Positions 11,400-40,120 of a stretch of 64,000 nt of DNA are shown piece by piece. The stretch spans positions 1,106 through 65,105 of the forward strand of contig CAIJZX010000028.1 in assembly GCA_903825245.1 (NCBI GenBank). Reading direction: 5' to 3'. The notes under the pieces are model-generated. The model did no database searches, was not told the origin of the DNA, and saw only the letters and a list, made by a program, of their open reading frames with translations. Source of the stretch: Candidatus Kerfeldbacteria bacterium. Lineage in GTDB: Bacteria; Patescibacteriota; Patescibacteriia; SBBC01; CAIJZX01. A program made the position numbers and the translations under genes. How positions within the stretch are numbered: the first letter of the stretch is position 1; each line of letters begins with the position of its first letter.

Positions 11400-11487
11400 G
11401 GAGGGTTCGCATAGTGGCCTAGTGCATACGCTTGGAAAGCGTACATACCGCAAGGTATCGAGAGTTCGAATCTCTCACCCTCCGCCA
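11400..11487 (+). tRNA. tRNA-Ser (anticodon GGA), CCA encoded
   Basis: Acceptor stem GGAGGGT/ACCCTCC. Anticodon stem-loop TACGC-TTGGAAA-GCGTA gives anticodon GGA. Long variable arm (ATACC/GGTAT). T-arm GAGAG-TTCGAAT-CTCTC, discriminator G, then CCA. Confidence 0.85.
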
Positions 11488-11558
11488 ATACAATCTTTTA
11501 TCGGAGCCGACCCACGTGGCTCAAGCGGTAGCAGGTTGCATTGGCACATATATACCCA

Positions 11559-11598
11559 ACCCCTTGTCGGAGTACCCGACGAGGGGTTCTATGTTTTT
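11559..11598 (+). terminator. terminator after tRNA-Ser
   Basis: 12-bp stem ACCCCTTGTCGG/CCGACGAGGGGT (one G-U pair) with loop agtac, followed by tctatgttttt. Confidence 0.5.
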
Positions 11599-11884: not shown

Positions 11885-12496
11885 CTATCCTTGACTCTCA
11901 AGTGGAAGAGCTGCGACGACCTCAGCGATGGTGTGCCAGACCTCATCGAGATCGGCGTAGCGGGAGTAATCCTTGCCGCGCCGGTCGATCGTGAGAACTG
12001 GGTAGTGTCTCGCAAGCGATTGGATCTCCTCCTGAACGCTGATCATCCGACTCACGACCATCTCGTGTTGTTCGAACTCGCGCGCACGACGGGCAATAAC
12101 CGACCGTAGCTCGGCTTCATCCGTCAGCAGGACGACACAGAGATCGGGCGTCACAGAGCGCAACCGATCTGCCTGAAGATGTACTTCAGGCGAATCGTGC
12201 CGTGCTGCGTCAACACGCAAGTATGCTTCGTGGGTGAGTGGACCGGAGTCGATGAAGCAGTGAATACCAGGTGTACCCAGCCGCATCGCGCACTCGCCTG
12301 CGCGAACACATCGTTCGGTGAACCAGGTATTCCGCTTGGATACGAGTGTGTGCGAGGCGAACGAATTAGTGACCCATTCCGGGAAGACCCCTACTTCACC
12401 TTCGGGGATGACGGGACATCGTGTGAGTGCTGCGAGTTGCGCTGACAGAAACGACTTACCAACGCCGCCGGTACCGTCGATTGCAACGATGGCCAT
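11885..12496 (-). CDS. P-loop nucleoside/nucleotide kinase (dNK/TMK-like fold)
   Basis: Walker A at the N-terminus (AIDGTGGVGKSF) and an Arg-rich LID-like segment (IARRAREFEQ). Clearly GC-richer than the surrounding genome. Confidence 0.55.
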   Translation of the reverse strand: MAIVAIDGTGGVGKSFLSAQLAALTRCPVIPEGEVGVFPEWVTNSFASHTLVSKRNTWFTERCVRAGECAMRLGTPGIHCFIDSGPLTHEAYLRVDAARHDSPEVHLQADRLRSVTPDLCVVLLTDEAELRSVIARRAREFEQHEMVVSRMISVQEEIQSLARHYPVLTIDRRGKDYSRYADLDEVWHTIAEVVAALPLESQG

Positions 12497-12693: not shown

Positions 12694-13605
12694 ATGGAGC
12701 TTCCGGAAAACATCAAAACCCTCTACCGCCACTGGTCATATCACATCCAAGAGGAATTGTCTCCAATTGGTGATCGACCCTTGATTGATGAGTCTCTTTT
12801 TCGTGACATGTGTTCTTTTATTGATGAGAGAATGTTAATTTGGCAGAAAAAAGTTTCCCTCCAACCTGAACCCTATTCGACGGATCCTATTCTTGCTAAA
12901 TACCGCTTCTGCAATATCTTCCGTGAGCTGGATAAACAAACCATCTTTTTTCATACTCTCCTCAACCCATTGCGAGATGATTTTTCGCTGTGGCTGTTGA
13001 ATATGTTTTATTGCCGGATGGTGGCACGTCCAGAAACTATTGAATCCGTAGGGCTACTCTCTTTTGACACAATGAAGAATGAGGAAGTATTTGGACGCTT
13101 GATATCTTCGTCCCGGCCTCGATTCGGCACCCCGTATGTTTTCCCTATTAGCGTCATCCAGAAAAGCCCAACGCCGACCCGCGAACGATTTATTGCCGAA
13201 TACCTGCCGTCGGTGATGAAGGTGATAGCGGCAGAAATACAAACGTGGAAGAAAAAATCCGTATACGATGGCCTACAAAGGATCATTCCGCTGTTTGGTA
13301 AAAACCTCTACTTCCTCTGGACAGAAGTGCTGATAGATACGGCCTACCAGTTTCCAACATACATCAATCTCTTTGAGCGTTTTCCTATTGGTCCGGGATC
13401 AGCTCCAACATTAAAAAGACTGAACCCTGCTATAGATCTGTCCATTCTTGTACAGCAGCTGACTGATGTGCCCGTGAATACGGCTCTACAGTTTAATAGC
13501 TTGCCGCTTAAACTGTCTGCAGAAAACTGGGAAGGAGTCGGTTGTGAGTTTCGGAAATACACCAACCTAAGATCGGGTATTGGTCGGAAACGCCTGTACC
13601 GTTAG
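12694..13605 (+). CDS. hypothetical protein; possibly alpha-glutamyl/putrescinyl-thymine pyrophosphorylase (aGPT-Pplase)-like (unverified)
   Basis: 303-aa soluble ORF, divergently paired with the P-loop kinase. Contains ...DPILAKYRFCNIFRELDKQT.... The assignment comes from recalled family patterns and gene context only, not from a search. Confidence 0.3.
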   Translation: MELPENIKTLYRHWSYHIQEELSPIGDRPLIDESLFRDMCSFIDERMLIWQKKVSLQPEPYSTDPILAKYRFCNIFRELDKQTIFFHTLLNPLRDDFSLWLLNMFYCRMVARPETIESVGLLSFDTMKNEEVFGRLISSSRPRFGTPYVFPISVIQKSPTPTRERFIAEYLPSVMKVIAAEIQTWKKKSVYDGLQRIIPLFGKNLYFLWTEVLIDTAYQFPTYINLFERFPIGPGSAPTLKRLNPAIDLSILVQQLTDVPVNTALQFNSLPLKLSAENWEGVGCEFRKYTNLRSGIGRKRLYR

Positions 13606-13639: not shown

Positions 13640-13951
13640 TCACGACATGCTCAGGTCAATGTTCTTGGGTTGCAGCACCAAGCGTTTCGGTGCCATGGTT
13701 TCGATTTTCTGCAGCCGCTCACGCAGTTGCGCGAGTGCGATCTGAATGTTGTCGAGATGGCCAGCCGCTTCACTCAAGCGGCGGCGCCACTCGGCCGGAT
13801 CATCGAACAGTCTGGCATTGAACACCAACTTGGCAGCAGTCTCAAGATCTTCGATCGGTCCAGTGCGCGCTGTCACCGAATTCCCAGCATGCATTGGCGA
13901 GTTCTTTCGAGACGCTCGGCGGGACATCGCGGTAGCGAGTCTCATCCTCAT
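13640..13951 (-). CDS. hypothetical protein (doubtful)
   Basis: 103-aa ORF in a GC-rich ~500-bp gap. No RBS and an RS-rich N-terminus. The region may be non-coding. Confidence 0.2.
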   Translation of the reverse strand: MRMRLATAMSRRASRKNSPMHAGNSVTARTGPIEDLETAAKLVFNARLFDDPAEWRRRLSEAAGHLDNIQIALAQLRERLQKIETMAPKRLVLQPKNIDLSMS

Positions 13952-14103
13952 CGGGTTCAGCCATGGAAGAAGTACCCCCCTTTCTTACTCGACATCGAAA
14001 TCGCCACCACCGACCTTCATCCCAGGCTCGACAAGCTCCTTATGGATATAAACCGGATCAATACGAATGCACCGTGGCGCTTTTGGATCGTGGCCATGTC
14101 CTC

Positions 14104-14222
14104 AGACCCCGACCCACATGCCTCAAATCGCCCTCTAGAAAAATCGTCAGAAAACCCTTATAATGCTTGTGTGAGTGTGGTACCTAACCCATGTGTCCCG
14201 CCAATAGAACTAAGTATCGGAC
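14104..14222 (+). repeat. promoter-bearing repeat, copy A
   Basis: gaccccgacccacatgcctcaaatcgccctctagaaaaatcgtcagaaaacccttataatgcttgtgtgagtgtggtacctaac... is near-identical to copy B (15914-16032). It embeds TAGAAA-N17-TATAAT (14136-14164). Confidence 0.6.
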
Positions 14223-14308
14223 AAATCACTTTCCTATGAGCATGAAGCAACCCGGGTGCCTTGTCCCCATCGCATTATAAAACGAATAATGAAGCTTTCG
14301 GATATCAG

Positions 14309-14953
14309 ATGATTATGATGATTATCTTTTCCTACAACATTGACAAGGATATAGAGAATATTATTAATGGAACACATGCGATCAACAGTAAAAAACCAAC
14401 AAAGTTTCAGCTTTCATTTAGCGACAACTACGGTAACAACTTTGAACCAGAAAAAGTAAAAACATACATCCAACAACAAGATAAGATAAATAATTTTGAT
14501 GCGAACAAAGAAACTGTCACCATGGAAGCAAAGTGGAAAAATGCCGAGTCTATTTTTATCGAGCGTGCGGAAAAAATATTCAGTCTTACTTACCCATCAC
14601 CGATAACTATATATTTGACCCACAATGAGCGCTGTACTTACAACATTGAAAAAAACTATTTTTTTGTCAAAATCGGATCGGAATTTTCAAACAACGCAAT
14701 CATGCATGAACTGTTACATTTTTATACGTGGCAAGCCTTTGGCAAAAAACTATTGGAAGAAGGAGTTGCAAAGTCAACATATAATGACGTCAAAGAATCT
14801 CTGACGGAACTTCTCAATCTTGAGTTTTCTGACCTTATGAGTGGAAAACCAGATAGTGGATATCCGCAGCATCAGGGGATGAGACGAATAATCCACGATA
14901 CATGGCTACCGCAAAAAGATCTTTTTTCCATAGTTCAAAAATTGATCTCATAG
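14309..14953 (+). CDS. YgjP/DUF45-like HExxH zincin (putative metal-dependent hydrolase)
   Basis: AT-rich ORF. IMHELLHFYTW is an HExxH motif, preceded by THNERCTY; this resembles the YgjP/WLM/SprT-like layout. First in-frame ATG is at 14309; the ORF track used TTG at 14261. Confidence 0.4.
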   Translation: MIMMIIFSYNIDKDIENIINGTHAINSKKPTKFQLSFSDNYGNNFEPEKVKTYIQQQDKINNFDANKETVTMEAKWKNAESIFIERAEKIFSLTYPSPITIYLTHNERCTYNIEKNYFFVKIGSEFSNNAIMHELLHFYTWQAFGKKLLEEGVAKSTYNDVKESLTELLNLEFSDLMSGKPDSGYPQHQGMRRIIHDTWLPQKDLFSIVQKLIS

Positions 14954-15054
14954 GTATTGGCGATGTAGTTGCAGGCACAAAACAAATTTATAGAAATAAT
15001 CTTCGAGGGATCGTCTTCTACGTCTCAGCTACCGACCTACTCTCCTTAACATCC

Positions 15055-15148
15055 TCCCTAGGGCGAACCTCATAAAACCCTTATAATGCTTACGCGGGTA
15101 GGATACCTAACTCGAGTGTCTCGCCAAGAGAACTTAGTATCGGGTGAC
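15055..15148 (+). repeat. promoter-bearing repeat, copy C (diverged)
   Basis: cataaaacccttataatgcttacgcgggtaggatacctaactcgagtgtctcgccaagagaacttagtatcgg aligns with copies A and B (TATAAT at 15082-15087; conserved ACCTAAC...GCCAA...TTAGTATCG). Confidence 0.5.
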
Positions 15149-15205
15149 CCATATGCCTAGAATCAAAGTCAAAATGTGGGAGGCACAAATAGGCAGAATT
15201 TGACT

Positions 15206-15856
15206 ATGCAAGTAGCCCAACTCCACAAAAAATTCGATGCTCTACAGAAAACATTCGGCCACGGTGAACTAAATCCGATATACGGCGCTGGATGTGTACA
15301 ACATCCAAGGTTAATGTTGGTATTTATGAATCCAACTGGAAAGAATGTTGCATCAAATACCAATTGGTCTGGACTTCGTGCCCCGTGGCTCGGAACAAAA
15401 AACATCTGGAAACTTTTACACGAGATAAAAGTTGTGTCAGAAGAAAGTTTTTCTGCAACCCAGACAAAAAAGTCAAACGAGTGGACACCCTTGTTTTGTT
15501 CTAATTTGTATAAGGAAATTGATTCGCACGAGGTGTACATTACAAACTTAGCCAAATGTACTCAATTGGACGCACGACCATTATCAAATTTGGTCTTCCA
15601 AAAATATCTAGAGTTATTCAAACAGGAAACACTCCTGATCCATCCAAAGAAGATAATTACCTTTGGCAACCAAGTAAGTTCGATTATTGTTGGAGAAAAT
15701 ATCTCAGTGGGAAAGTATGCTGGTAATCGGCATGAAGATGTGAAAATTGGGAGCAAGATTTTCCCAGTTTATCCGACGTGGTATCCAGTTGGGCAGGGCA
15801 TGAGAAACCTCCCATTAGCTGCGAAACGAATTAAGAAAGTTCTCTCCACCAAATAA
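15206..15856 (+). CDS. uracil-DNA glycosylase superfamily protein (family-4-like layout, divergent motif A)
   Basis: EVYITNLAKCTQ matches UDG motif EVYITNxVKCRP. LLIHPKKIITFGNQV and KIFPVYPTWYP correspond to the family-4 UDG C-terminal motifs. Motif A is FMNPTG instead of GEAPG. Confidence 0.55.
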   Translation: MQVAQLHKKFDALQKTFGHGELNPIYGAGCVQHPRLMLVFMNPTGKNVASNTNWSGLRAPWLGTKNIWKLLHEIKVVSEESFSATQTKKSNEWTPLFCSNLYKEIDSHEVYITNLAKCTQLDARPLSNLVFQKYLELFKQETLLIHPKKIITFGNQVSSIIVGENISVGKYAGNRHEDVKIGSKIFPVYPTWYPVGQGMRNLPLAAKRIKKVLSTK

Positions 15857-15913
15857 TCTAAAAAGGGTACCGAACAATTGAGACATCCTTAAGAAGTGCC
15901 TCATTTTGGTTTT

Positions 15914-16032
15914 AGACCCCGACCCACATGCCTCAAATCGCCCCCTAGAAAAATCGTCAGAAAACCCTTATAATGCTTGTGTGAGTGTGGTACCTAACTC
16001 GAATGTCCCGCCAATAAAATTTAGTATCGCGC
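15914..16032 (+). repeat. promoter-bearing repeat, copy B
   Basis: Near-identical to copy A over ~95 bp (TAGAAA 15946-15951, TATAAT 15969-15974), then diverges. It is preceded by the tail motif gagacatccttaagaagtgcctca that is shared with copy D. Confidence 0.6.
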
Positions 16033-16058
16033 AACTCATCCAGGCAGTTACTTTATCC

Positions 16059-16742
16059 ATGAATCCAGAAAACACGAAAATCGAATCTCGCGAAATCCCG
16101 GAGATTGGTTTGCGTATCGAATTTTCACCACAACATGATGCCGAAATGGTTCGTGATAATCTCGATCCGGAAGAAATAGAATGGAATCGTACAATGGGAT
16201 ATCCATGCAGATTACCGAATAAAGTTGAAGAAGCTGTTTCGCGCGGAACCATTCCAACAGTTGAAGAAATTATTGAAGCGGTGACAGCCGAGTACCAGTC
16301 GGCGAGATACGAGCAACAATCTCTGGTCTTTACCGAGGCGTGGAATGAACAACGGGATGGATTCATAAAAAACCTATCGACCCTTGGTGTACCATTGCCA
16401 AACGAATATATCCTCCGATTGACCAGGTATGGTACCGGCGGAATGTACAAACTCCCGAATGAGATTGAGGTGATTGTGAACGACCCGATTACGACCGATT
16501 TCCACACACCCTTTCATGAGATGGTTCATTTGACCATCGAAGATCTGATTGTCGAGCACCATATTGGTCACTGGACCAAGGAACGATTGGTTGATCTTAT
16601 TCTCAATATGTTCGTTCCGGAAAAGAAATATCTCCAACAAGACCCGCCACACACAAAGCAAATCGATCAACTTTTCGAGCAGTATTTTCCTGACGTGAAG
16701 CGCATTATTGAAGAAATAACTACATTGGGGAGAGGTGCTTGA
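16059..16742 (+). CDS. YgjP/DUF45-like zincin (putative nucleotide pyrophosphatase/metal-dependent hydrolase)
   Basis: TRYGTGGMY...FHEMVHLTIEDLIVEHHIGHW matches the DUF45/YgjP pattern (RWGSC...HELxHLxExNHSxxFW). ATG at 16059; the upstream in-frame extension in the ORF track is a translation of repeat B. Confidence 0.5.
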   Translation: MNPENTKIESREIPEIGLRIEFSPQHDAEMVRDNLDPEEIEWNRTMGYPCRLPNKVEEAVSRGTIPTVEEIIEAVTAEYQSARYEQQSLVFTEAWNEQRDGFIKNLSTLGVPLPNEYILRLTRYGTGGMYKLPNEIEVIVNDPITTDFHTPFHEMVHLTIEDLIVEHHIGHWTKERLVDLILNMFVPEKKYLQQDPPHTKQIDQLFEQYFPDVKRIIEEITTLGRGA

Positions 16743-16757
16743 TTATACTACAGTTCT

Positions 16758-16823
16758 ATGGCCGAACTCCCACTACAACCCACCCTCGTCGATTTCCAAG
16801 CCCAACTTCTTAAATCTCGTTAA
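16758..16823 (+). pseudogene. relic 5' fragment of a mazG-like gene (22 codons then stop)
   Basis: ATG at 16758 encodes MAELPLQPTLVDFQAQLLKSR*. It is ~80% nt-identical over ~48 nt to the start of the intact mazG at 17202 (MPELSPQPTLADFQAH...). Confidence 0.5.
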
Positions 16824-16842
16824 TTCCATTATTTTCTTTGGT

Positions 16843-17193
16843 ATGAAAATCACTCGAAAAGAATCTCATATTGAGGATAAGCATGGAATTAAACTTTGGG
16901 TTTATCCTGTTGGTCGGAAAGAGGCTGGGGTGGTTTATGTTGAAGTTGAGGAAGGACACTTCCAAGAGTTTTTTGATAAGAAAAGTACTTTTATTTACTA
17001 CATTATTGAAGGCCAAGGAACTTTTTTTCTTGATGGCAAAGAAACTACCGTTAAAGAGGCGGATTTGGTCGTTATTCCGCCCATGACAAAAATTTACTAT
17101 TTTGGGAAAATGAGAATGACCCTAACGACGGTTCCCGCCTGGGAGCCGGAAAATGAAGTTCACGTCAGGTTCATTGAAAAACCAAGCAACTAA
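16843..17193 (+). CDS. cupin domain protein
   Basis: 116 aa. GVVYVEVEEGHFQEF...YIIEGQGTFFLDGKETTVKEADLVVIPP is a typical cupin two-motif beta-barrel. Confidence 0.55.
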   Translation: MKITRKESHIEDKHGIKLWVYPVGRKEAGVVYVEVEEGHFQEFFDKKSTFIYYIIEGQGTFFLDGKETTVKEADLVVIPPMTKIYYFGKMRMTLTTVPAWEPENEVHVRFIEKPSN

Positions 17194-17201
17194 TACTTTT
17201 T

Positions 17202-17534
17202 ATGCCCGAACTTTCGCCACAGCCAACCCTCGCCGATTTCCAAGCCCACATCAAGGCAGTTTGCACTGAACGCGGTTGGGACAAAAATTCCTATTCGGAA
17301 ATATTTTTATTGTTTACCGAAGAAGTTGGAGAACTCGCGAAATCAATTCGAAATGAAGCGAAATTACATGCCCAAGTCGATCCGAAGAAACGCTTTGAGC
17401 TGGAAGAAGAGTTCGCTGATGTTTTTAACTACCTTCTGGACTTAGCCAATTACTTTAACGTTGATCTCGAAGCGGCATATCGGAAGAAACATGAGCATAA
17501 TACAACAAGAGCTTGGAAAGCGAAAGGGGAATAA
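17202..17534 (+). CDS. MazG-like nucleotide pyrophosphohydrolase
   Basis: 110 aa. TLADFQAHIKAVCTERGWDKNS...EEVGELAKSIRNE...EEEFADVFNYLLDLANYF is the MazG/NTP-PPase EExxE helical-bundle pattern. Confidence 0.7.
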   Translation: MPELSPQPTLADFQAHIKAVCTERGWDKNSYSEIFLLFTEEVGELAKSIRNEAKLHAQVDPKKRFELEEEFADVFNYLLDLANYFNVDLEAAYRKKHEHNTTRAWKAKGE

Positions 17535-17540
17535 CACTCT

Positions 17541-18320
17541 ATGAGCACACAGCGTCGAACCGTCGTTTCCTACAATCGTTATGCAGGATCATGGGCCTCG
17601 TTGATGCGGTCCGGCGGTAATACTTCGCATCGGTACCTCGAGAAACCGGCGATGTTCCGTGCCTTGCCGAGCCTTCGCGGTAAAACGGTGTTGTGTGTCG
17701 GTTGCGGGACTGGCGAAGAGTGCGAATTATTGATGAAGCTCGGCGCTAAGCGCGTCGTTGGTACAGATATTTCCAAAAACCTCATTCGCGAAGCGAAACG
17801 CGCTTTTCCCGCGATCGAATTTTACACGAGGGATATGGAGCGACTGCGATTGCCGGCGCATGCATTCGACGTGGTCTACTCGAGTTTGACCATGCACTAC
17901 GTGCCGAGCTGGAAGCAAACCCTGGCCCAAGTCAAGAAGGTGCTGAAACCCGGCGGACAGTTTGTTTTTTCAACGCACCATCCAGTCCGTTGGGGCGCTG
18001 AGACGAAAGAAACGAAGCACCACAAGTCACACATTCTCGGGTATGAAAAAATAGACAAGGGCAAGGCAATTGTGTACGGCGATTATCTGAATGGCCACTG
18101 GATTCACGATCGTTGGTTCGGCGATTTCGATGTCACGTATTATCATCGGCCGTTATCGCTCTTGATACGCGATATTTTGGAAAGCGGACTTGAGCTTATC
18201 GATTTTCAAGAGCCAAAACCGCTAGCAACTGTCCGCCGCGAGAACCCGCAATACTGGAAGATCCATCAGAAAATCCCGCTCTTCATGATCTTCGTCTTGC
18301 GAAAAAAGGAGTCAAAATAA
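17541..18320 (+). CDS. class I SAM-dependent methyltransferase
   Basis: Motif I VLCVGCGTGEE, post-I acidic residue (VVGTDIS), and motif LKPGGQFVFS. Confidence 0.75.
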   Translation: MSTQRRTVVSYNRYAGSWASLMRSGGNTSHRYLEKPAMFRALPSLRGKTVLCVGCGTGEECELLMKLGAKRVVGTDISKNLIREAKRAFPAIEFYTRDMERLRLPAHAFDVVYSSLTMHYVPSWKQTLAQVKKVLKPGGQFVFSTHHPVRWGAETKETKHHKSHILGYEKIDKGKAIVYGDYLNGHWIHDRWFGDFDVTYYHRPLSLLIRDILESGLELIDFQEPKPLATVRRENPQYWKIHQKIPLFMIFVLRKKESK

Positions 18321-18387
18321 ATAGTCTTAATCGACTTCGCATTTTGTTCGGTTTTTGGTATACTGCAGAAATAACGCACAATAAATT

Positions 18388-18852
18388 ATGAAACTACGCA
18401 ACCACGCCGTCCCGGCGGTGTACCTCGTGATGCGAAAGGATAACAAGATTCTCTTTATGCGCCGGCAAGGCAGCGGTTTTTATGACGGTTGGTATTCGCT
18501 TCCGGCCGGCCACGTTGAAGCCGGTGAATTGCCAAAGGTGGGATTAGCGCGAGAAATGGAAGAAGAACTGGGGATAGGTATCGACGTGAACGCGCTCCGG
18601 CTCGTACATACGCTGTACCGGACGAAGAGCGATGAATCCGGCGATCGGGTGGACATGTTTTTTGACGTCCCGTCGTGGCAGGGCGAGCCAACGATTATGG
18701 AGCCGCACAAGTGTGATGATTTGCAGTGGTGCTCGATGCAAGAATTACCGGACAAAGTGATGCCGCACGTACGGCGAATATTGGAGGCCATCGATCGAGG
18801 CGAGACGTTCTCCGAGTTCGATTTGCCGACAATGTTGTCGTTTCCGAAATAA
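18388..18852 (+). CDS. Nudix hydrolase
   Basis: Nudix box GHVEAGELPKVGLAREMEEELGI. Confidence 0.8.
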   Translation: MKLRNHAVPAVYLVMRKDNKILFMRRQGSGFYDGWYSLPAGHVEAGELPKVGLAREMEEELGIGIDVNALRLVHTLYRTKSDESGDRVDMFFDVPSWQGEPTIMEPHKCDDLQWCSMQELPDKVMPHVRRILEAIDRGETFSEFDLPTMLSFPK

Positions 18853-18887
18853 TTCGCTTATTTAATTGTTTGTGGTAGGCTAGAACC

Positions 18888-19358
18888 ATGGCACACCTTC
18901 ACGACAAAATAGATTTCACGACCGAAGTCTTCATTGTTTTTCAGGGCAAAGTATTGTTGCGGAAGCACGATAAATACAAGATTTGGCTGAGTGTGGGTGG
19001 GCATATTGAACTTGATGAAGACCCGATACAGGCCGCACTGCGTGAAGTGAAAGAAGAAGTTGGGCTTGATGTTCAACTCTTTGGTCAACCGATCAGTGTC
19101 AGCAATGAAGGAGAAAACGGCTATCACGAGCTACTCCCGCCGATGTTTATGAACCGACACCATATTTCTGATACGCATGATCATATAACACTGACGTATT
19201 TTGCCAAAGCGACAACTAGTACTATTCGAAATCAAGAAGACGAGCATAGCGACGAGCTGAGATGGTTTACTGCGGAAGAACTTTCAGATTCGAAGTTTGG
19301 CATTCGGGATAGTGTTCAGAAATACGCATTGGCCGCCTTACAAACAATTCAAGGATAA
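18888..19358 (+). CDS. Nudix hydrolase
   Basis: Nudix box GGHIELDEDPIQAALREVKEEVGL. Confidence 0.75.
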   Translation: MAHLHDKIDFTTEVFIVFQGKVLLRKHDKYKIWLSVGGHIELDEDPIQAALREVKEEVGLDVQLFGQPISVSNEGENGYHELLPPMFMNRHHISDTHDHITLTYFAKATTSTIRNQEDEHSDELRWFTAEELSDSKFGIRDSVQKYALAALQTIQG

Positions 19359-19361
19359 ACC

Positions 19362-19910
19362 ATGTCAGAAGAAATGATCGACGTGCTCGATACACAGGGG
19401 GAAAAAACCGGACAAATATTGGAATTAAAAGAAGTCCATCGGCAAGGACTTTGGCATCGTACGGCGCATATTTGGGTTGTGACCTCAAAAGGTAATATAC
19501 TTTTTCAACAGCGCTCGCCGATCCTTGATGTCTACCCTAACTGTTGGGATATTTCCGCGTCCGGCCACATTCGAACTGGTCAAACGAGCCTTGAAGGGGC
19601 TATAGCAGAAACACAAGAAGAAATCGGATTATCCTTAAAACCCAACTCGTTAGAATTTCTGACTACACTGCAGCATGAAAGCGAACATAATCAAGGCACA
19701 AACATTAATAGAGAATTTCAGGATGTGTATTTGGTAACACAAGACGTGTCATTGAATGAATTAACAATACTCAATACCGAGGTCAGCAATCTGCAATTTA
19801 TACATTGGTCGAAATTACGTCGACTAGTTGACAATCATGACCAGGGGTTTGCCCCACGTGGTCAAGAATACCAACTACTATTCTCAATATTGCAGCAACG
19901 TTATCCATAA
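19362..19910 (+). CDS. Nudix hydrolase (IDI-like clade)
   Basis: Nudix box SGHIRTGQTSLEGAIAETQEEIGL. The N-terminal LWHRTAHIWV...LFQQRS...YPNCWD resembles the isopentenyl-diphosphate-isomerase-like Nudix subfamily. Confidence 0.7.
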   Translation: MSEEMIDVLDTQGEKTGQILELKEVHRQGLWHRTAHIWVVTSKGNILFQQRSPILDVYPNCWDISASGHIRTGQTSLEGAIAETQEEIGLSLKPNSLEFLTTLQHESEHNQGTNINREFQDVYLVTQDVSLNELTILNTEVSNLQFIHWSKLRRLVDNHDQGFAPRGQEYQLLFSILQQRYP

Positions 19911-19990
19911 TGCCCACCCCCGTCGAAGACATCATGGTTCGACAGGCTCACCATTCAGTGATCAATAACCTGCCGTTATATAACATTTAG
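19910..19990 (+). other. uORF / duplicated dnaG start fragment (26 codons)
   Basis: ATG overlaps the Nudix stop (taATG). It encodes [12 protein letters not shown]..., whose first 8 codons duplicate the dnaG N-terminus MPTPVEDI at 19999 (23 of 28 nt identical). Confidence 0.35.
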
Positions 19991-19998: not shown

Positions 19999-21822
19999 AT
20001 GCCGACACCCGTAGAAGACATAAAGGCTCGCATCGATATCGTCGATTTTATCGGCGAGTCGTTGCCGTTGAAGCAAGCGGGCAATAATTGGAAAGGGAAG
20101 TGCCCGTTCCATAACGAAAAGTCGCCGTCGTTTATGGTGTCGCGCGAGCGCGGCTCGTGGCACTGTTTCGGGTGCGGTGAAGGCGGAGATATTTTTACCT
20201 TTGTCGAAAAACAGGAAGGGTTGGATTTTCCGGAGGCATTGCGATTGCTGGCCAAGCGTGCCGGTGTCCAACTCCGCGAGTACAACGCCGAAGAGCAGAC
20301 GCAACGCACGAAAGTGCTTGATGTCTTGCGCTGGGTGAGCCGATATTACCAGGAAGTGTTCCGCAAAGCCGCTGATGCTGAGCCGGCGCGCGAATATTTA
20401 CAGAAGCGCCAAGTGAATGAAACATCGCTGGAAGATTTTGGTGTTGGTTATGCGCCGGCGGCTTGGGATAGTACGTTTCAAGCATTGAAGAAAAAAGGAT
20501 TTAGCGACGATGATATTTTCCAAGCCGGTTTAACGATTCGCAAAGATCGCGGCGCGGGTTTTTATGATCGTTTCCGCAATCGGATTATGTTCCCGATTCA
20601 GGATGTGCACGGTACAGTTGTCGGATTCAGCGGTCGTGTTCTCGATGCGCTCGTTGATCCGAAAGGACCGGTGCCGGCGAAGTACATCAACTCACCGCAA
20701 ACCATCGTTTATGACAAAGGAAATATCTTGTATGGTTTAGATAAAGCCAAGCAGGCGATAAAAAAAGCAGACAAGGCGGTCATCGTCGAAGGACAGATGG
20801 ATTGCCTCATGTCGCATCAAGCGGGCGTGAACAACGTCGTAGCGTCGTCGGGCACGGCATTGACCGCCGAGCACGTTAGTTTACTCAAACGGTTTACGAC
20901 GAACTTGGTACTGTCGTTCGATCAAGATGCGGCGGGGGCGCAAGCGGCGCTTCGCGGAGTTGACCAAGCCTTGATGGCAAAGATGAGCGTGCGCATCGTC
21001 CGGCTCACGCAAGGCAAAGATCCGGATGAGCTGATAAAAAACGATCTGCCGGCGTGGCAGAAGGCGATTGATAGCGCCCAGCCGTTGATGGAGTATTACG
21101 TCCAAGAGGCGACGGCGGGAAAAGATTTACAGAGCGTTGATGATAAAAAAGCAGTAGTGAAGTTCCTGTTACCGATTATCGGCAAGCTCGGCGATCCAGT
21201 TGAACGATCGCACTATCTCCAACAATTGGCCGACATGGTGCACGTCGAACGCGATGCTCTTCAGCAATCGCTTGATGCACAGGCACCGAAACGCCAAGCA
21301 TCGACCACCCAACCGGTGCCTGTCAAACAGAAAACCGAAGCCATCGCCGACCTCCGCGTTGACCGTTTTCGTGCGGTTTCGGAGCGATTGGTGGCCTTAT
21401 TTGTTCATGAGCCTTCATTGCTTGACCGATTTGCCAGCGGGTTTGACCCGGCTGTGCTTGTGGGGCAGGATCTTCAGACCCTATACAAGACGCTCATCAT
21501 CTGGTATAGTGTAAATCACTTTTCTACCCGCCATGCCTTGGCGGATGCAGCCTCGTCACTCGACCCGGAACAACAGGAGTTATTTACCCTCCTCACCCTC
21601 CTCGGAGATCATGAGTATCCCGATGGAATTACACCGAGCGTCGAACACGATATTTTAACGATGATCGTCGCCATGAAGCGTCGGTCACTCTCTCTCGAAT
21701 TACATCGGCTCGAAGCCGATATTCGCCGTCTCGAGCAATCGGGTGGCGCCAATGCCAGCCAACTCTCGGAGTTGTTGGCCAATGTGCAAACCGTGACCGA
21801 TCAACTTCGGACACTCGAGTAG
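19999..21822 (+). CDS. dnaG: DNA primase DnaG
   Basis: CHC2 zinc finger ([14 protein letters not shown]...[11 protein letters not shown]), Toprim region ([11 protein letters not shown]...FDQDAAG), 607 aa. Confidence 0.9.
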
Positions 21823-21941: not shown

Positions 21942-23162
21942 ATGCCAAAAAAAGTAGTCAAGAGCAGTAAGCATCCAGCGCCGAAAAAGCACCCGGCAGC
22001 GAAACGAAACAAATCGAATAAGCGATACGTCGCAAAAACAGCGCCGCGTGCTCCGCGACCACCACGACCGGTGATCACGCCGGAAACTATTGCCGATCTT
22101 GTGCGAAAAGGACGCCAACGCGGTTTCTTAACCGAGACCGAGTTATTGTATGCCTTTCCGGATCTTGAGAATTATATTGACCAGTATGAAGGCGCGCTCG
22201 ATGAGTTTGAAAAGAACGGCGTCCAAATCGTAGAAAATGCCGGCAGCATTCTCGAGCCGGTCAAGCCGTCATTTCTCGAACCAGCACACGCCAAGAAACA
22301 TTTGCCGACTGATGAGCGCCATTTTGATTTAGGTGATATTTCTGGCGACTCGATTCAAATGTACTTACGAGAAATTGGTAAAGTCCCATTGCTCACCGGT
22401 GAAGAAGAGGTCTCGTTAGCCAAGCGCAAAGAAGCTGGAGATGTTGAAGCTTCGAAGCGTCTCGTTGAGGCTAACCTTCGACTCGTTGTTTCGATCGCTA
22501 AGAAGTTTACCGGACGATCACTGTCACTACTTGATCTTATTCAAGAAGGGAATATTGGGTTGTTTCGGGCAGTTGAAAAATTTGATTATCGTAAAGGGTA
22601 TAAGTTTTCAACGTATGCCACCTGGTGGATTCGACAAGCGATCACTCGCGCCCTTGCCGATCAATCCCGCACCATCCGTATTCCGGTGCACATGGTTGAA
22701 ACGATCAATAAGTTCCAGCAGATCCAGCGCCAACTCATTCAGGACCTCGGTCGTGAACCGCTGCCGGAAGAAATTGCCGCGGAAATGGGCGAGCCAATCG
22801 ACAAGATCCGCCACGTCATGAAAATTTCTCAAGACACGGTATCGTTGGAAACATCGGTTGGTGAGGACGATGAAGACTCGACACTCGGTGACTTCATCGA
22901 AGACGTTAAAACAGTGTCGCCGGATAAAGTGGCCGCTCTGCAACTGTTGCGCGATGATGTTCGCACGATTATCGAATCGCTCAGTCCGCGTGAACAGAAA
23001 ATTCTGGAAATGCGCTTTGGATTAAATGACGGTGTGGCACACACACTTGAAGAAGTCGGTCAGGAGTTCGGCGTCACGAGAGAGCGTATTCGCCAAATCG
23101 AATCGAAAGCGCTGGAGAAAATCCAACAGCATCAGCACATGCGGAAACTTAAAGACTATTAG
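21942..23162 (+). CDS. rpoD: RNA polymerase sigma-70 factor RpoD
   Basis: Region 2 ([40 protein letters not shown]), region 3, and region 4.2 ([27 protein letters not shown]). Confidence 0.9.
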
Positions 23163-23250: not shown

Positions 23251-23324
23251 GGCGCTGAAAAGACTGACCGTTGACGAGAATAGCATTTTTCCTTATACTC
23301 CTCCTGTTCTTGAACACTGTTGAT

Positions 23325-23396
23325 TCCCAGGTAGCTCAATGGTAGAGCAATCGGCTGTTAACCGATTGGTTCTCGGTTCGAATCCGAGCCTGGGAG
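23325..23396 (+). tRNA. tRNA-Asn (anticodon GTT), copy 1
   Basis: Acceptor TCCCAGG/CCTGGGA, D-arm GCTC-AATGGTA-GAGC, anticodon arm ATCGG-CTGTTAA-CCGAT (GTT), T-arm CTCGG-TTCGAAT-CCGAG. No encoded CCA. Confidence 0.85.
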
Positions 23397-23586
23397 GTTA
23401 GAGGAGAAGTTGCCCGGCGACCGACCCCTATCCAAACCGCCCCACTGCCTTAGCCAAATTCTCTCGTCCCTCACATCGTCGAATTTTCCAAAAGCGTCAA
23501 AGATGAGGAGACTAGGCACGATATTCGAACCAGTCCATTTCCTGTAGAATAGTAGAATCTTTGAAAACATTTTGAGCGCTATTGAT

Positions 23587-23661
23587 TCCCAGGTAGCTCA
23601 GCGGTAGAGCAATCGGCTGTTAACCGATTGGTCGTCGGTTCGAATCCGACCCTGGGAGCCA
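23587..23661 (+). tRNA. tRNA-Asn (anticodon GTT), copy 2, CCA encoded
   Basis: Same acceptor and anticodon arms as copy 1 with diverged D-loop (agcgg) and T-stem (GTCGG/CCGAC). It shares the 12-nt leader ttgattcccagg. Confidence 0.85.
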
Positions 23662-23709
23662 AGAGCGTTTGAGGTGAGTTTACACGGAAAATCACAGGTT
23701 CGAATCCTG

Positions 23710-23737
23710 TCCCCGGGTACGGTGGGGATTTTGGTTT
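23710..23737 (+). terminator. possible terminator after the tRNA-Asn pair
   Basis: Stem TCCCC/GGGGA with a 9-nt loop, followed by TTTTGGTTT. Confidence 0.3.
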
Positions 23738-23759: not shown

Positions 23760-24338
23760 ATGACACTCATTAAGTACCAGGAGTTCCTACTTCACTTTCC
23801 GACATCAGAACAAAGGATCTTCCATCTCGGTACAATTACGGAAAGATATTTTTACATGTCTGAAGATCAGGTTGAGGAGTTTCAAAAAGAGCTTGCCGCA
23901 GTATTTGACCCATCAAGAAGATTCACTAAACCCGCTGATAGGCTGTACTCGTTCTGTTTTGGTTTCTATTCCCTGATAAGGGTTACTCTAGAAGCAACGT
24001 ACAAACTGAATCAATACTTTGACAAGAAGTATAGTAACCAGGAATTACAGCAATACCGTGAAGATTGGTTTACACGGATTGACGCAATAAGGCAGATAGC
24101 AAATGATATCGTCAAACATCCCCTCGATGATGAGACAAGAAAGAAAGATTACTTTTTTGAACCAGGAGGCTCAGATAGCATGGGGTCTGTTACCATCTAC
24201 AAATGGTGGATCGACCCCCAAAAAGAGATGGATTTCTCCAAAGAGATAAAACCAGCAATAGATTTGCAAACCGTCTTTGATTATCTAGAAGGGCTTGCCG
24301 AAAAGTACTCAGCCGTTCTGGGTGCAGTGGTAAAATAA
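23760..24338 (+). CDS. hypothetical protein (AT-rich island)
   Basis: 192-aa ORF in DNA markedly AT-richer than the core genes, immediately downstream of the tRNA-Asn pair. Confidence 0.4.
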   Translation: MTLIKYQEFLLHFPTSEQRIFHLGTITERYFYMSEDQVEEFQKELAAVFDPSRRFTKPADRLYSFCFGFYSLIRVTLEATYKLNQYFDKKYSNQELQQYREDWFTRIDAIRQIANDIVKHPLDDETRKKDYFFEPGGSDSMGSVTIYKWWIDPQKEMDFSKEIKPAIDLQTVFDYLEGLAEKYSAVLGAVVK

Positions 24339-24396
24339 GTTCCAAGGTACAAAATAGAACCGAAGTCTCTTTCAAGTATTACCTACATAAGCCAGT

Positions 24397-25305
24397 ATGA
24401 AAATAGTAAAACCTATAAAGGCAGACATTGTTTGGCATACTTGGCTTCAAAGCGAGTGGTTTAGAATTGAGCAAGATAATCACGAAATTTCTCATCTAAT
24501 ACCCCTTGTTCTCAATCCAAACTTTGGAGATGAGAACGAAAACAAAATAAGGTTAGAAACCCTAAGATTACGCAGGGGTCTTATAATTGATAAAATGCCT
24601 GATGGGACTAATTGGTTTGAAGTAGAAATTGAAGAAAAAGATATAAATAACTTATTTATTATCCCTTCTCCCGATTGGTTTATGGATACGAATGGGACAT
24701 TCAAATTATCTGCGCTTGGAGAGAACCTAAAGCCTGGTCGTGGTTCACGAATTCATGGTATGGAAAATATTGATCACTTCCAAGAAGTTCAGCGAAAGGT
24801 TAAGTATCTTTCTGAACATTCAGAAATCGAATCTCAGGAGTTGCCCATTATTATTGCTACTCAAAACTCCGGACCATACACAATTATTGATGGCACTCAT
24901 CGAGTGGGTGCCTGGCTTCAAACCAATAAGGCTTTTCACTGGAAGATGTACTTGGCCGTGAACTCGGCCTTTGATAATTACGTTTTTAATGCTGATGGTA
25001 ATCAAGTCCACAATACAATCACTGAGCTACAGAAAAATCCTACAATTTCTGTCATTCTTGTAACAATTATCGACTTTGTTGCCTTCCTCCCCACATATCG
25101 AAAAAGCTATGAGGAGCCACACACCGAGACCATCACGACCTATTTCCTGAGTGGAGCATCCAGTCTTGTCGCCCTATTCGCACTCGCTGAGTATTCAGTC
25201 GCTACATCGCTTTACGTATCTAGTCTAGTAATAACAAACGCCGTAGTTGTAGTGATTCTAGTGATACGAAGAAAGAGCGTTAAACAATCAACGGGCATCA
25301 TTTAG
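24397..25305 (+). CDS. ParB/Srx-like nuclease-domain protein fused to a C-terminal 3-TM membrane half-module
   Basis: N-terminal soluble domain with ATQNSGPYTIIDGTHRVGAW (ParB-like DGxHR). The C-terminal ~80 aa (ISVILVTIIDFVAFLPTYRKSYEEP...VILVIRRKS) are paralogous to the second half of the membrane protein at 45673..46260. Confidence 0.45.
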   Translation: MKIVKPIKADIVWHTWLQSEWFRIEQDNHEISHLIPLVLNPNFGDENENKIRLETLRLRRGLIIDKMPDGTNWFEVEIEEKDINNLFIIPSPDWFMDTNGTFKLSALGENLKPGRGSRIHGMENIDHFQEVQRKVKYLSEHSEIESQELPIIIATQNSGPYTIIDGTHRVGAWLQTNKAFHWKMYLAVNSAFDNYVFNADGNQVHNTITELQKNPTISVILVTIIDFVAFLPTYRKSYEEPHTETITTYFLSGASSLVALFALAEYSVATSLYVSSLVITNAVVVVILVIRRKSVKQSTGII

Positions 25306-25307
25306 CG

Positions 25308-25420
25308 ATCCACGACCCACCCGCTTCAACTCCTCTCTTGAAAAATCGTCCGAAAAACCCTTAAAAGTCTATTTTGAGACAGTCCTGAAACAGCCTTAAG
25401 AAGTGTCTCAAGTTTCTCAA
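25308..25420 (+). repeat. promoter-bearing repeat, copy D (permuted core/tail order)
   Basis: gatccacgacccacccgcttcaactcctctcttgaaaaatcgtccgaaaaacccttaaaagtct aligns with copies A and B (~75% identity). It embeds TTGAAA-N17-TTAAAA (25338-25366) and is followed by the tail motif gagaca...ccttaagaagtgtctca. Confidence 0.5.
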
Positions 25421-38358: not shown

Positions 38359-38379
38359 TTAGTGTAGTATATACACCAT
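38359..38379 (+). promoter_or_regulatory. candidate NrtR operator 1
   Basis: TTAGTGTA-gtata-TACACCAT, overlapping the nrtR start codon. Half-sites are identical to the site at 39087. Confidence 0.45.
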
Positions 38380-39070
38380 GAAGCACTCAAGCCCTGTCCC
38401 GCATGAACTCCGATTCGCCGTTCTAGCCGCTGATGCGGTTATGTTCACGGTCTTTGATGGCCGTTTACACGTTCGGCTGATTCCAGTGCACCTACCGCCG
38501 TACTTCAGCCATCTTGCTGGTATCCCCGGTGGTTTACTGGCGCCAACGGAAACGGCCGATCAAGCTGCAGTGCGGCACGCCACGACCAAGGGCGGCGTAC
38601 TTCACGAACATTTATATCTGGAACAATTGTATACCTTCAGCGCTATCAACCGTGATCCTCGTAATCGTGTGGTGGCAGTGGCCTATCTCGGCCTTGTGCC
38701 GTGGGAAGTGTTAACGAAAACCGCAGAACGGGATACCGCCGCGGCGACCTGGGTTCGTATCGACAAGTTACCGAAACTTGCCTATGACCATCGAGAAATT
38801 ATTCGCGTCGGCCTCGAACGTTTGCGGTCGCGGGTAACCTATACCACAATTATCAAACAGTTGATGCCGAAAGAGTTCACACTGACCGACCTTGAAGTAA
38901 TGTATGAAACCGTATTGGGTCAAGATATTGATAAACGGAACTTCCGCAAAAAAGTATTGAAGACCGGCGTCCTGCAAGTGTTACCTCGTGAACGGACAGG
39001 GGAGCAACACCGCCCGGCAAAGCTCTATCGGTTTCTCAATCGTGACATCGAACCAATCGCGATCATCTAA
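38378..39070 (+). CDS. nrtR: NrtR-family Nudix-related transcriptional regulator
   Basis: N-terminal Nudix fold with a degenerate Nudix box (GIPGGLLAPTETADQAAVRHATTKGGV, catalytic Glu residues lost). The C-terminal winged-helix (TLTDLEVMYETVLGQDIDKRNFRKKVL...RPAKLYRF) is typical of NrtR. Confidence 0.75.
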   Translation: MKHSSPVPHELRFAVLAADAVMFTVFDGRLHVRLIPVHLPPYFSHLAGIPGGLLAPTETADQAAVRHATTKGGVLHEHLYLEQLYTFSAINRDPRNRVVAVAYLGLVPWEVLTKTAERDTAAATWVRIDKLPKLAYDHREIIRVGLERLRSRVTYTTIIKQLMPKEFTLTDLEVMYETVLGQDIDKRNFRKKVLKTGVLQVLPRERTGEQHRPAKLYRFLNRDIEPIAII

Positions 39071-39086
39071 ATTTTTTTATGTTTAG

Positions 39087-39107
39087 TTAGTGTAAGATTT
39101 ACACCAT
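39087..39107 (+). promoter_or_regulatory. candidate NrtR operator 2
   Basis: TTAGTGTA-agatt-TACACCAT, ~70 nt upstream of nadM-Nudix. Confidence 0.45.
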
Positions 39108-39175
39108 TCAAACCAAGCTGGGTCGTCACCGCAACGATACACCTTGGCTGGAGTCAAGGACTTGTCCTTTACAAC

Positions 39176-40120
39176 ATGGAGAATATCATGGACTCGAAGA
39201 ATATCGGTGTCATCGTGGCACGGTTTCAAGTGCCGGAGTTGCACGACGGCCATCGGTACCTGATTGATCACGTTCGTGAGCGCCATGCCCGCGTCCTGAT
39301 CGTTCTCGGGTATTCCGAAGCCCACCTGACCACGCGGAATCCGCTCGATGTAGCAACGCGATTGATGATGGTACAGGCAGCGTATCCCGACGTACGGGTG
39401 GCCAGTCTGCCCGATATGCGCTGCGATCAACTATGGTCGAAGACTCTGGATCATGTAATCAACCAGGAATTCCCCGGATGCTCGGCAGTGCTCTACGGAT
39501 CGCGATCGAGTTTTCTCAGCCAGTATCACGGCCGACATCAATGCCAGGAAATACCGCCGCTGCCGTGTCCGGCAGCAACGGAGGTGCGGGAAACAATTAC
39601 CGCTCCGCTGGATTCGATGGAGTTTCGCCAGGGCGTCATCTATGCCGCTCGTCAAAAGTACCCGACGTCATACCAAACGGTCGATGTCGCGGTGCTGAAC
39701 GGCGATCGAACGAAGGTGCTGATGGCGATGAAGGTCGACGACAACAATCGTTGGCGGTTCATCGGTGGCTTTGTTGATCCGGCTGACGCTTCGCTCGAAG
39801 CAGCGGCCAAGCGGGAAGTAACGGAAGAAACGTCGATGATCGAGACGGATGATTATATCTATCTCGGTTCCTCGCGGGTGTTCGATTACCGTTACCCGCG
39901 CGGCGACGTCGACGCGATCATGACGGCGTTGTTTGCTGCCACGTACATATTTGGTGCGCCCACTCCCAAGGACGACATTGTCCGTTTGGAATGGAGACCA
40001 ATCGATGAGCTGGAGAACACGCTGGTCCCGGAACATCAAGCCTTGGGCGCACAGCTGCGCGCCTATCTCGCCACTGTCAATCACGGAAGGAGCGATCACC
40101 ATGCGACGAAATCGTTCTAA
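39176..40120 (+). CDS. nadM: bifunctional NMN adenylyltransferase / Nudix (ADP-ribose pyrophosphatase), NadM-Nudix
   Basis: N-terminus GVIVARFQVPELHDGH is the archaeal-type NadM (H/T)xGH motif. The C-terminal Nudix box is GGFVDPADASLEAAAKREVTEETSM. Confidence 0.8.
   Translation: MENIMDSKNIGVIVARFQVPELHDGHRYLIDHVRERHARVLIVLGYSEAHLTTRNPLDVATRLMMVQAAYPDVRVASLPDMRCDQLWSKTLDHVINQEFPGCSAVLYGSRSSFLSQYHGRHQCQEIPPLPCPAATEVRETITAPLDSMEFRQGVIYAARQKYPTSYQTVDVAVLNGDRTKVLMAMKVDDNNRWRFIGGFVDPADASLEAAAKREVTEETSMIETDDYIYLGSSRVFDYRYPRGDVDAIMTALFAATYIFGAPTPKDDIVRLEWRPIDELENTLVPEHQALGAQLRAYLATVNHGRSDHHATKSF

Follow-up and report, generated by a model that had tools for sequence, protein, structure and literature searches.

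The DNA analysed here is a 64-kb window (64,000 nucleotides; "the window" below) from an uncultured Candidatus Kerfeldbacteria bacterium (Patescibacteria), whose DnaG is 79–82% identical to the DnaG of three metagenome-assembled genomes labelled Candidatus Kerfeldbacteria or Patescibacteria group. Nine small plus-strand genes are arrayed at 14.3–19.9 kb, encoding in order a zincin (Zn1), a protein of the uracil-DNA glycosylase (UDG) superfamily, a second zincin (Zn2), a cupin, a MazG-type protein, an S-adenosylmethionine (SAM) methyltransferase and three Nudix hydrolases. Judged from sequence comparison, this array makes up the right two-thirds of a lineage-specific mosaic island of 8.5 kb (~11.5–20.0 kb), which probably fills a recombination hotspot between tRNA-Ser(GGA) and dnaG, with a repeat of ~135 nt as its putative att-like junction element. 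The genomes of Patescibacteria are tiny, and these bacteria presumably rely on nucleotides and DNA that they scavenge; to our knowledge, the gain and shuffling of accessory genes are poorly documented in these bacteria. The tRNA-Ser/dnaG interval offers a concrete hotspot, with defence, envelope or nucleotide-handling cargo depending on the lineage.

A variable interval between tRNA-Ser and dnaG

Thirteen related loci were obtained through DnaG, and all open reading frames (ORFs) of the window were compared with the six closest of them by tBLASTn. The relatives are different species with DnaG proteins 57–82% identical, and up to 10 kb upstream of dnaG was covered. A backbone consisting of a GroEL-like gene, PPDK, a 715-aa protein, tRNA-Ser(GGA), dnaG, rpoD and tRNA-Asn is conserved. 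The variable region is anchored on the left by tRNA-Ser(GGA) (11400–11487, plus strand; found by ARAGORN, 53.2 bits against the Rfam tRNA model), which stands beside dnaG in relatives too, and on the right by dnaG (19999–21822, plus strand; assigned by Pfam), which is kept in the 13 related loci and followed by rpoD (21942–23162). None of the island ORFs, including a P-loop kinase, an HMUDK_hel protein and a 103-aa ORF (orf103) upstream of the array, found a match around dnaG in the six relatives. In three loci tRNA-Ser and dnaG are separated by short distances (72 bp in L009, 294 bp in L011 and 473 bp in L008). Other relatives carry cargo of their own in the interval. In L010, 3.6 kb encode a GT1 glycosyltransferase together with a PMT_2 protein, and in L007 a Type ISP restriction-modification enzyme occupies 3.5 kb. 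The interval of L006 (about 4 kb) codes for a DUF4153 protein, a protein of unknown function and one that resembles uridine kinases, and across its inverted tRNA there are genes for a Nudix protein, an NTP-transferase and a glyoxalase. As the island ORFs, among them the genes between the tRNA and the first repeat, are not seen around dnaG in the relatives, the unit of variation is the whole 11.5–20.0 kb interval and the site is a hotspot. A first-pass annotation of this DNA had proposed a piecemeal, accretive island together with a synteny comparison by which to judge it. The comparison bears the proposal out, since tRNA-Ser, dnaG and rpoD stay fixed and the island genes are not at the locus in relatives. 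Its placement of the array beside the tRNA holds in part: tRNA-Ser does anchor the region, but 2.6 kb with three more island genes lie between it and the first repeat.

Traces of recombination are visible at the tRNA itself. In L006, L010 and L011, tRNA-Ser is followed within 10–20 nt by a degenerate partial duplicate of itself that spans the anticodon loop to the T arm (L006 5780–5856, L010 6344–6400 and L011 9540–9618), and in L006 and L011 the tRNA is inverted relative to dnaG. The partial duplicates in the relatives argue for a recombinogenic site.

The island is also heterogeneous in composition. From Zn1 to Nudix 3, the gene GC contents are 0.35, 0.40, 0.44, 0.39, 0.44, 0.51, 0.54, 0.44 and 0.42, compared with a window mean of 0.498 (standard deviation 0.049). 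The variation from gene to gene (0.35–0.54) and the host-like values of the methyltransferase and the first Nudix gene agree with what the first-pass annotation had remarked, and the jumps between neighbouring genes indicate assembly from separately acquired pieces. The closest relatives of Zn1 in other genomes share 65–73% identity with it, and those with a name belong to Taylor-, Portnoy- and Harrisonbacteria and to Paceibacterota; for comparison, even the DnaG proteins of the nearest genomes reach only 79–82% identity. Together with its GC content of 0.35, the identity of Zn1 to proteins of these groups suggests transfer between Patescibacteria groups.

Duplicated gene 5′ ends, already noticed in the first reading of this DNA, are present at two junctions. 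Between Zn2 and the cupin gene lies the relic 5′ end of a mazG allele (16758–16823, plus strand), comprising 21 codons and a stop, which was recovered in independent assemblies; here, the 51 nt at 16754–16804 are 82% identical to 17198–17248. A relic dnaG 5′ end (19910–19936, plus strand) overlaps the stop codon of Nudix 3 (TAATG) 89 nt before the real dnaG start. It agrees with 19999–20025 in 22 of 27 bases, encodes MPTPVEDI, the same first eight residues as DnaG, begins with 14 nt that are identical to the dnaG start of L011, and was recovered in L039–L042. Both relics are best read as recombination scars, that is, as putative joints of recombined donor fragments. The overlap of the dnaG relic with the Nudix 3 stop points to a donor genome in which Nudix 3 was translationally coupled to dnaG; the incoming fragment would have ended 27 nt into dnaG and been joined upstream of the resident gene. 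The mazG relic may stem from an illegitimate join of two array variants: in one, mazG would have come directly after Zn2, in the other after the cupin gene. Taken together, the empty or differently filled sites, the GC jumps, the ~70% identity of Zn1 to proteins of other groups and the two relic starts show that the pieces of the island were acquired separately and in several steps.

A conserved housekeeping operon upstream of dnaG–rpoD, or else an assembly chimera, might be argued from the tight packing of the genes on the same strand as dnaG–rpoD without strong internal terminators. Either is highly unlikely, given that the genes are not at the locus in six of six relatives and that independent assemblies from other samples recover the internal junctions and the Nudix3–dnaG junction at 99.7–100% identity. 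The independently recovered stretches are orf103–repeat 1–Zn1–repeat 2–UDG, the Zn2 end–relic–cupin–MazG–methyltransferase, and Nudix 1–3–relic–dnaG; the structure is therefore not a chimera. No presence/absence variation of cassettes was found among the same-strain contigs from other samples.

The ~135-nt repeat

A repeat of ~135 nt precedes Zn1, the UDG gene and Zn2. Its three copies, which the first-pass annotation had spotted before the first three members of the array, are 69–91% identical and share an invariant TATAAT. Copy 1 (14101–14233, plus strand; nhmmer E 2.3e-40) and copy 3 (15911–16041, plus strand; E 1.7e-40) both carry TAGAAA-17-TATAAT, which in copy 1 scores 10/12 in a promoter scan, while copy 2 (15024–15157, plus strand; E 6.8e-37) is the most divergent. 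The 18-mer AAAACCCTTATAATGCTT is invariant in the three copies, and a search of the 64-kb window with three mismatches allowed returned these three sites only, compared with 0.08 expected. Downstream of copy 3 the genes are densely packed (gaps of 3–100 nt) without a strong terminator. Zn2, cupin, MazG, methyltransferase and the three Nudix genes therefore likely form a seven-gene operon reading towards dnaG–rpoD, and copy 3 is likely the promoter for Zn2 through Nudix 3, to go by its consensus hexamers. Two gene calls are touched by the repeat. The public call of Zn2 (P0001, 278 aa, from 15906) starts at a TTG inside copy 3 and is over-extended by 51 codons of repeat, because homologues of ~220 aa place its start at the ATG at 16059. 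A 189-aa ORF (13670–14239) runs through copy 1 and is probably no gene.

Further copies lie outside the array. A partial copy consisting of the 5′ half (25309–25377, plus strand; E 5.4e-7 with an nhmmer profile of five copies) directly follows two AT-rich ORFs of 192 and 302 aa in the 23760–25420 region, which have GC contents of 0.39–0.41, no family match and were not seen around dnaG in relatives. A hairpin after this partial copy contains CCTTAAGAAGTGTCTCA at 25394–25410, and the same stretch is found just 5′ of copy 3 (15887–15903). Two more copies were found by an exact-pattern scan of metagenomes, requiring 22 exact bases, on the 4.7-kb contig Ga0172379_10036077 (L019, 3305–4062), where they stand 650 nt apart around an unrelated acidic 101-aa ORF. 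The GC content of this contig is similar to that of the window; the contig lacks a tRNA, it shares no protein with the window, and an ORF downstream of the copies encodes a P-loop helicase-like protein that, on reading its sequence, we take to resemble PIF1/RecD. The second copy on this contig (L019b) breaks off right after CCGCCAG and gives way to GC-rich DNA.

The tRNA-Ser 3′ end provides a clue to the role of the repeat. The tRNA end and its flank read CCGCCA-ATACAATCTTTTATCGG-AG-CCGACCCACGTGGCTCAAG, whereas the repeat ends with CCGCCA-ATAGAACTAAGTATCGG, which resembles the first part of this flank, and starts with CCGACCCACATGCCTCAAATC, which resembles the second part. A putative att-like junction lies at 11482–11525 (plus strand), in which the CCGCCA of the tRNA 3′ end plus 17 nt corresponds to the repeat end and the sequence after AG to the repeat start. 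When the repeat is permuted circularly, its nhmmer profile matches these 44 nt across the junction (E 5.4e-5), local alignments agree, and an exact copy of the 13-nt motif GACCCAYRTGSCT lies at 11509. The same order of end and then start is also found after copy 2, whose 3′ side (to 15164) passes into the start motif GACCCATATGCCT once more. At the tRNA, similarity to the repeat begins at CCGCCA; in L019b, it stops right after CCGCCAG. A full-length degenerate copy of the repeat 3′ of tRNA-Ser was considered and dropped, as the similarity beyond the 44-nt junction is not significant. A derivation of the 3′ half of the repeat from the body of tRNA-Ser, anticodon arm through T arm, gave a suggestive but weak alignment and is not claimed, and the dnaG upstream regions of relatives as a source of the repeat yielded no significant match.

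Because the CCGCCA core and the right arm match the tRNA-Ser 3′ end and its flank, we infer that the repeat is an att-like junction, which serial insertion into the tRNA or beside it would have left behind, and which would also give each module a promoter. Insertion around the common core would leave a hybrid of tRNA, core and right arm at the tRNA, full sites of left arm, core and right arm between tandem insertions, and a hybrid of left arm and core elsewhere, as in L019b. The insertion might be site-specific, in which case the recombinase would presumably be encoded outside the window, or might proceed by homology-driven exchange between repeat copies after DNA uptake, both routes being equally viable. 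Several observations weigh against this reading. The repeat was seen at two loci only, in a single metagenome scan at the stringency given above. The promoter activity of TATAAT is predicted from its consensus, and the promoter scan shows no overall excess of promoter-like sites (15 compared with 13.2 expected). Past the 44-nt junction, the similarity of the tRNA flank to the repeat is not significant (p about 0.15), and no repeat copy was found at the dnaG-side end of the island. No recombinase or integrase family was detected in a Pfam scan of 47 ORFs, which include every main gene at 5.5–32.7 kb. Finally, the relatives are different species, and the comparison for island genes covered their DNA around dnaG.

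Alternatively, the repeat could be a cis-regulatory module, consisting of a promoter with an operator or with a riboswitch-like structured 5′ leader, that co-regulates Zn1, UDG and the Zn2 operon and has spread by duplication without any role in recombination. This is possible but clearly less probable than an att-like junction, and the two are not fully mutually exclusive. Four copies have TATAAT unchanged, 17 nt from a −35-like hexamer, and in some copies the motif GACCCAYRTGSCT, which is partly palindromic, lies on the flanks of the promoter region. Run on four copies, RNAalifold moreover proposes two stems: the outer one contains two compensatory pairs, and the other, GGUAC/GUAUC, encloses a loop of 30 nt that is highly conserved. 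In this small set of four sequences, 2 of 13 pairs are compensatory. However, the fifth copy (L019b) lacks the 3′ strands of both stems, and single-sequence RNA folds of the repeat are no better than shuffles (z −0.3 to −1.8). The ~60 nt 5′ of the −35 hexamer are as conserved as the leader. The repeat matches no Rfam family: a gathering search of the whole window finds tRNAs only, and an E-value search of 13900–16200 gave nothing better than E 4.5. A covariance model of the leader, run against the window and 21 loci, returned known copies only and none in relatives, and Zn2 homologues elsewhere are not preceded by the repeat. A purely regulatory role would furthermore leave the match to the tRNA flank unexplained.

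A stronger version of the att-like reading regards the 135-nt element as the attachment site of an undescribed Patescibacteria cassette-capture system. Single-gene cassettes with their own promoters would be inserted serially at a CCGCCA core that mimics the tRNA 3′ end, either by a recombinase encoded elsewhere or by repeat-guided homologous exchange after DNA uptake. If true, this would amount to integron-like arrays built on a different kind of site. We consider it unlikely. An integron-like cassette array without integrase (a cluster of attC sites lacking integron-integrases, CALIN) is superficially suggested by the co-directional single-gene units of 0.9 kb between highly similar repeats of ~130 nt and by the heptamer ACCTAAC, which fits the RYYYAAC consensus. 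It is nevertheless very improbable. No hairpin forms on either strand: single-stranded DNA folding of three copies on both strands gave z values of +0.7 to +2.3 against dinucleotide shuffles, that is, the copies are less structured than shuffles, and an attC identity was rejected on this structure criterion. In addition, no internal inverted repeat is present in the copies, the sequence shows no GTTRRRY partner, the repeats stand ahead of the genes and bring promoters with them, and no IntI-like protein was found among the scanned ORFs. The first-pass statement that the locus is not an integron and encodes no integrase stands, with no attC hairpins and no recombinase in the 47 ORFs. Phage or viral relatives of the repeat were not detected either: of two repeat patterns scanned in viral contigs, one gave a single chance match without flanking similarity and the other none, and blastn against phage genomes yielded no match.

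Cargo genes

Seven of the nine proteins of the array (UDG, cupin, MazG, methyltransferase and the three Nudix proteins) match Pfam families above gathering scores, and the ORF list confirms the nine co-directional genes described in the first pass. None of the seven reaches an NCBIfam equivalog cut-off. The divergent UDG-superfamily protein (15176–15856, plus strand; GC 0.40) matches PF03167 with 31.7 bits against a cut-off of 24.3 (1.9e-7), but only reaches 25 against a cut-off of 125.3 with the family 4 subfamily model. Its best match in the PDB is the Thermus thermophilus UDG 1UI0 (E 1.7e-4) over the C-terminal half only. The first motif is a non-canonical FMNPTG, which we take to be closer to the GxNPG of MUG/SMUG-type glycosylases than to the GEAPG of family 4. 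The small cupin (16843–17193, plus strand; GC 0.39) exceeds the Cupin_3 cut-off slightly (24.3 compared with 23.5), lies above that of AraC_binding, and has 116 aa on other contigs too. It is followed by a protein with a MazG-type nucleoside triphosphate (NTP) pyrophosphohydrolase domain (17202–17534, plus strand; PF03819, 25.0 bits compared with 22; PHROG pyrophosphatase, 3.8e-11) and by the class I SAM methyltransferase (17541–18320, plus strand; GC 0.51; Methyltransf_11, 6.9e-23, 81.6 bits). The family of the latter is 50–57% identical across Patescibacteria, and its sequence looks like that of a small-molecule enzyme, resembling BioC, UbiE and Tam.

All three Nudix proteins belong to PF00293. 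Nudix 1 (18388–18852, plus strand; GC 0.54; 3e-20, 73 bits) is MutT-like at the family level, with 49.8 against 148 for the MutT equivalog. Nudix 2 (18888–19358, plus strand; 2e-16, 60.7 bits) is NudB-like (41.5 against 103), and Nudix 3 (19362–19910, plus strand; 6.1e-11, 42.9 bits) is closest to isopentenyl diphosphate (IPP) isomerase/YfcD (PRK03759, 64.9 against 127). Two more Nudix genes are found at 38378–40120, one encoding an NrtR-like Nudix plus winged-helix regulator and the other a protein of 314 aa whose Nudix domain is C-terminal; the genome of the window is rich in Nudix genes.

The two remaining members of the array, Zn1 (14309–14953, plus strand; GC 0.35) and Zn2 (16059–16742, plus strand), are real, conserved proteins as judged by their homologues, 41 of which were found for Zn2. 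The first-pass annotation had assigned them to YgjP/DUF45. Neither has a Pfam or NCBIfam family, however, and the DUF45 model (PF01863) does not match. BLASTP of Zn1 against Zn2 yields no match, and only a profile–profile comparison links the two as remote homologues (hhalign of Zn2 against the Zn1 family, 79% probability, E 1.7e-5). H133, E134, H137 and E163 are invariant in the Zn1 family and H153, E154, H157 and E175 in the Zn2 family, which gives an HExxH-X17-E pattern for the latter. Foldseek with the AlphaFold2 model of Zn2 (pLDDT 92) returned weak zincin matches only, and sequence searches of both families against the PDB gave nothing meaningful. Both are predicted gluzincin metallohydrolases with HExxH, a downstream Glu ligand and, to judge by fold matches, a thermolysin-like fold; they are M1-aminopeptidase-like zincins rather than YgjP/DUF45 proteins. 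Some proteins of the Zn1 family (P0043 and P0068, 370 aa) also carry a GrpB domain (PF04229), and in L037 GrpB adjoins a methyltransferase homologue.

Between the tRNA and the array, the region starts with a strong terminator-like hairpin 3′ of tRNA-Ser (11558–11588, plus strand; 13-bp stem followed by a T run), and three further island genes follow. A P-loop NTPase or kinase (11885–12496, minus strand; Pfam AAA_28, 3.6e-6; PHROG thymidylate-kinase-like, 3e-4) is divergently paired with the HMUDK_hel/aGPT-Pplase-clade-1-like protein of 303 aa (12694–13605, plus strand; PF18723, 1.2e-16, profile positions 2–273 of 281). Over its full length, the latter is homologous to the PaMx11 phage protein gp50 (26% identity over 290 aa, E 8e-13). 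In the phage thymidine-hypermodification cluster, the gp50 gene adjoins that of the 5-hydroxymethyldeoxyuridine (5-hmdU) DNA kinase gp49 (PMC8989533). A gene of the thymidine-hypermodification type is unusual in a Patescibacteria chromosome. The kinase of the window shares only the Walker A motif with gp49 and has no phage match. The third gene, orf103 (13640–13951, minus strand), is taken from the ORF list, has no family match in Pfam, PADLOC or PHROG, and is present in same-strain contigs.

According to the first-pass annotation, every member with a recognisable fold acts on non-canonical nucleotides or damaged DNA. This is plausible for five of the nine, but does not extend to the zincins, the cupin or the small-molecule-like methyltransferase, and Nudix 3 is nearest to IPP isomerase. 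About half of the cargo (the UDG-like protein, MazG and the Nudix proteins) plausibly polices nucleotide pools or DNA bases, to judge by domain membership. A single cooperating system, either a house-cleaning unit or, with the kinase and the aGPT-Pplase1-like protein, a DNA-modification or anti-phage module directed against modified pyrimidines such as 5-hydroxymethyluracil (5-hmU), could be built on the UDG, MazG and three Nudix domains within 5 kb, on the gp50 homologue with its adjacent P-loop kinase, on weak PADLOC matches to the candidate defence families PDC-S07, PDC-M51B and mad2, and on the hotspot of L006, which likewise holds a Nudix and a uridine-kinase-like gene. SMUG-type enzymes excise 5-hmU, and this activity may link the UDG-like protein to the nearby gp50-like gene. 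We nevertheless judge cooperation of this kind, which the first pass had proposed, to be quite unlikely. The PADLOC matches are generic, as are the domain matches in PHROGs, and no aGPT-Pplase2 (amino-acid:DNA transferase) or thymidylate-synthase family was matched among the window ORFs scanned. The two zincins, the cupin and the methyltransferase lack a link to nucleotides, and the mixed GC content favours separate origins. The cassette homologues are unlinked in other genomes, those of Zn1, Zn2 and the methyltransferase each occurring singly in unrelated neighbourhoods of other Patescibacteria. As Nudix genes are moreover common, the cargo is better described as a loose set of accessory hydrolases than as one system.

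Two features further away in the window deserve mention. At 23324–23735, two tRNA-Asn genes are found 262 nt apart where relatives have one, and a displaced tRNA 3′ fragment with flank at 23697–23735 (CACAGGTTCGAATCCTGTCCCCGG..GGTGGGG.TTTT) matches the tRNA-Asn 3′ end and flank of L007; in L007 itself, another fragment of this kind lies about 90 nt 3′ of the tRNA-Asn. A stretch at 53300–55100 with a GC content below 0.40 and a 271-aa ORF (53453–54268) without Pfam match is possibly another acquired segment.

Comparison with known systems

For the annotation of this DNA, the analysis corrects the zincin families, the over-extended Zn2 call and the cupin start, which is at 16843. Beyond this, the repeat may act as both a recombination junction and a portable promoter. 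If it proves widespread at cassette boundaries, it would represent a new gene-capture route in the phylum; otherwise, the locus is a clear and well-anchored case of flexible-genome mosaicism.

Among described systems, the locus may be compared with tRNA-linked islands and tandem integrative elements. Like these, it adjoins a tRNA, is not at the locus in relatives and has a mosaic, atypical composition; its putative junction repeats resemble the terminal bases of the tRNA plus flank, and partial tRNA duplicates are found at the site in relatives. Unlike in such islands, no integrase was found among the scanned ORFs and no repeat at the distal end, the repeat is equipped with a promoter, each module consists of one gene of 0.7–0.9 kb instead of a multi-kb unit, and the similarity to the tRNA covers its last 6 nt and the flank only. 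Integron arrays and CALINs resemble it in having co-directional single-gene cassettes between mutually similar repeats of ~130 nt, whereas the repeats described here lack attC symmetry, stand 5′ of the genes with their own promoter, and come without IntI or an attI/Pc arrangement.

The functional parallels are looser. With house-cleaning enzymes such as MazG, MutT-type Nudix proteins and UDG, the island shares domain-level membership of five of its nine proteins, but none reaches an equivalog cut-off, Nudix 3 is nearest to IPP isomerase/YfcD, and the UDG family 4 match covers the C-terminal half only. Phage thymidine-hypermodification clusters (5-HMUDK plus aGPT-Pplase, as in PaMx11 gp46–gp51) likewise have a gp50-type gene (PF18723) beside a P-loop kinase of gp49-like size; here, however, the two genes are divergent and chromosomal, the kinase is unrelated beyond its P-loop, and no clade 2 transferase or dUMP hydroxymethylase was found.

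Flexible-genome hotspots share with the locus the fixed flanks, here tRNA-Ser and dnaG, and the lineage-specific cargo of restriction-modification enzymes, glycosyltransferases and nucleotide enzymes, and the relic dnaG and mazG 5′ ends resemble the joints of recombined donor fragments. The difference lies in the promoter-bearing repeats, which punctuate the cargo and recur on another contig; we know of no such internal repeats in flexible-genome hotspots. The locus is a tRNA-linked flexible-genome island. What sets it apart is the repeat, a probable junction element with a promoter of its own, of which further copies exist on a second contig.

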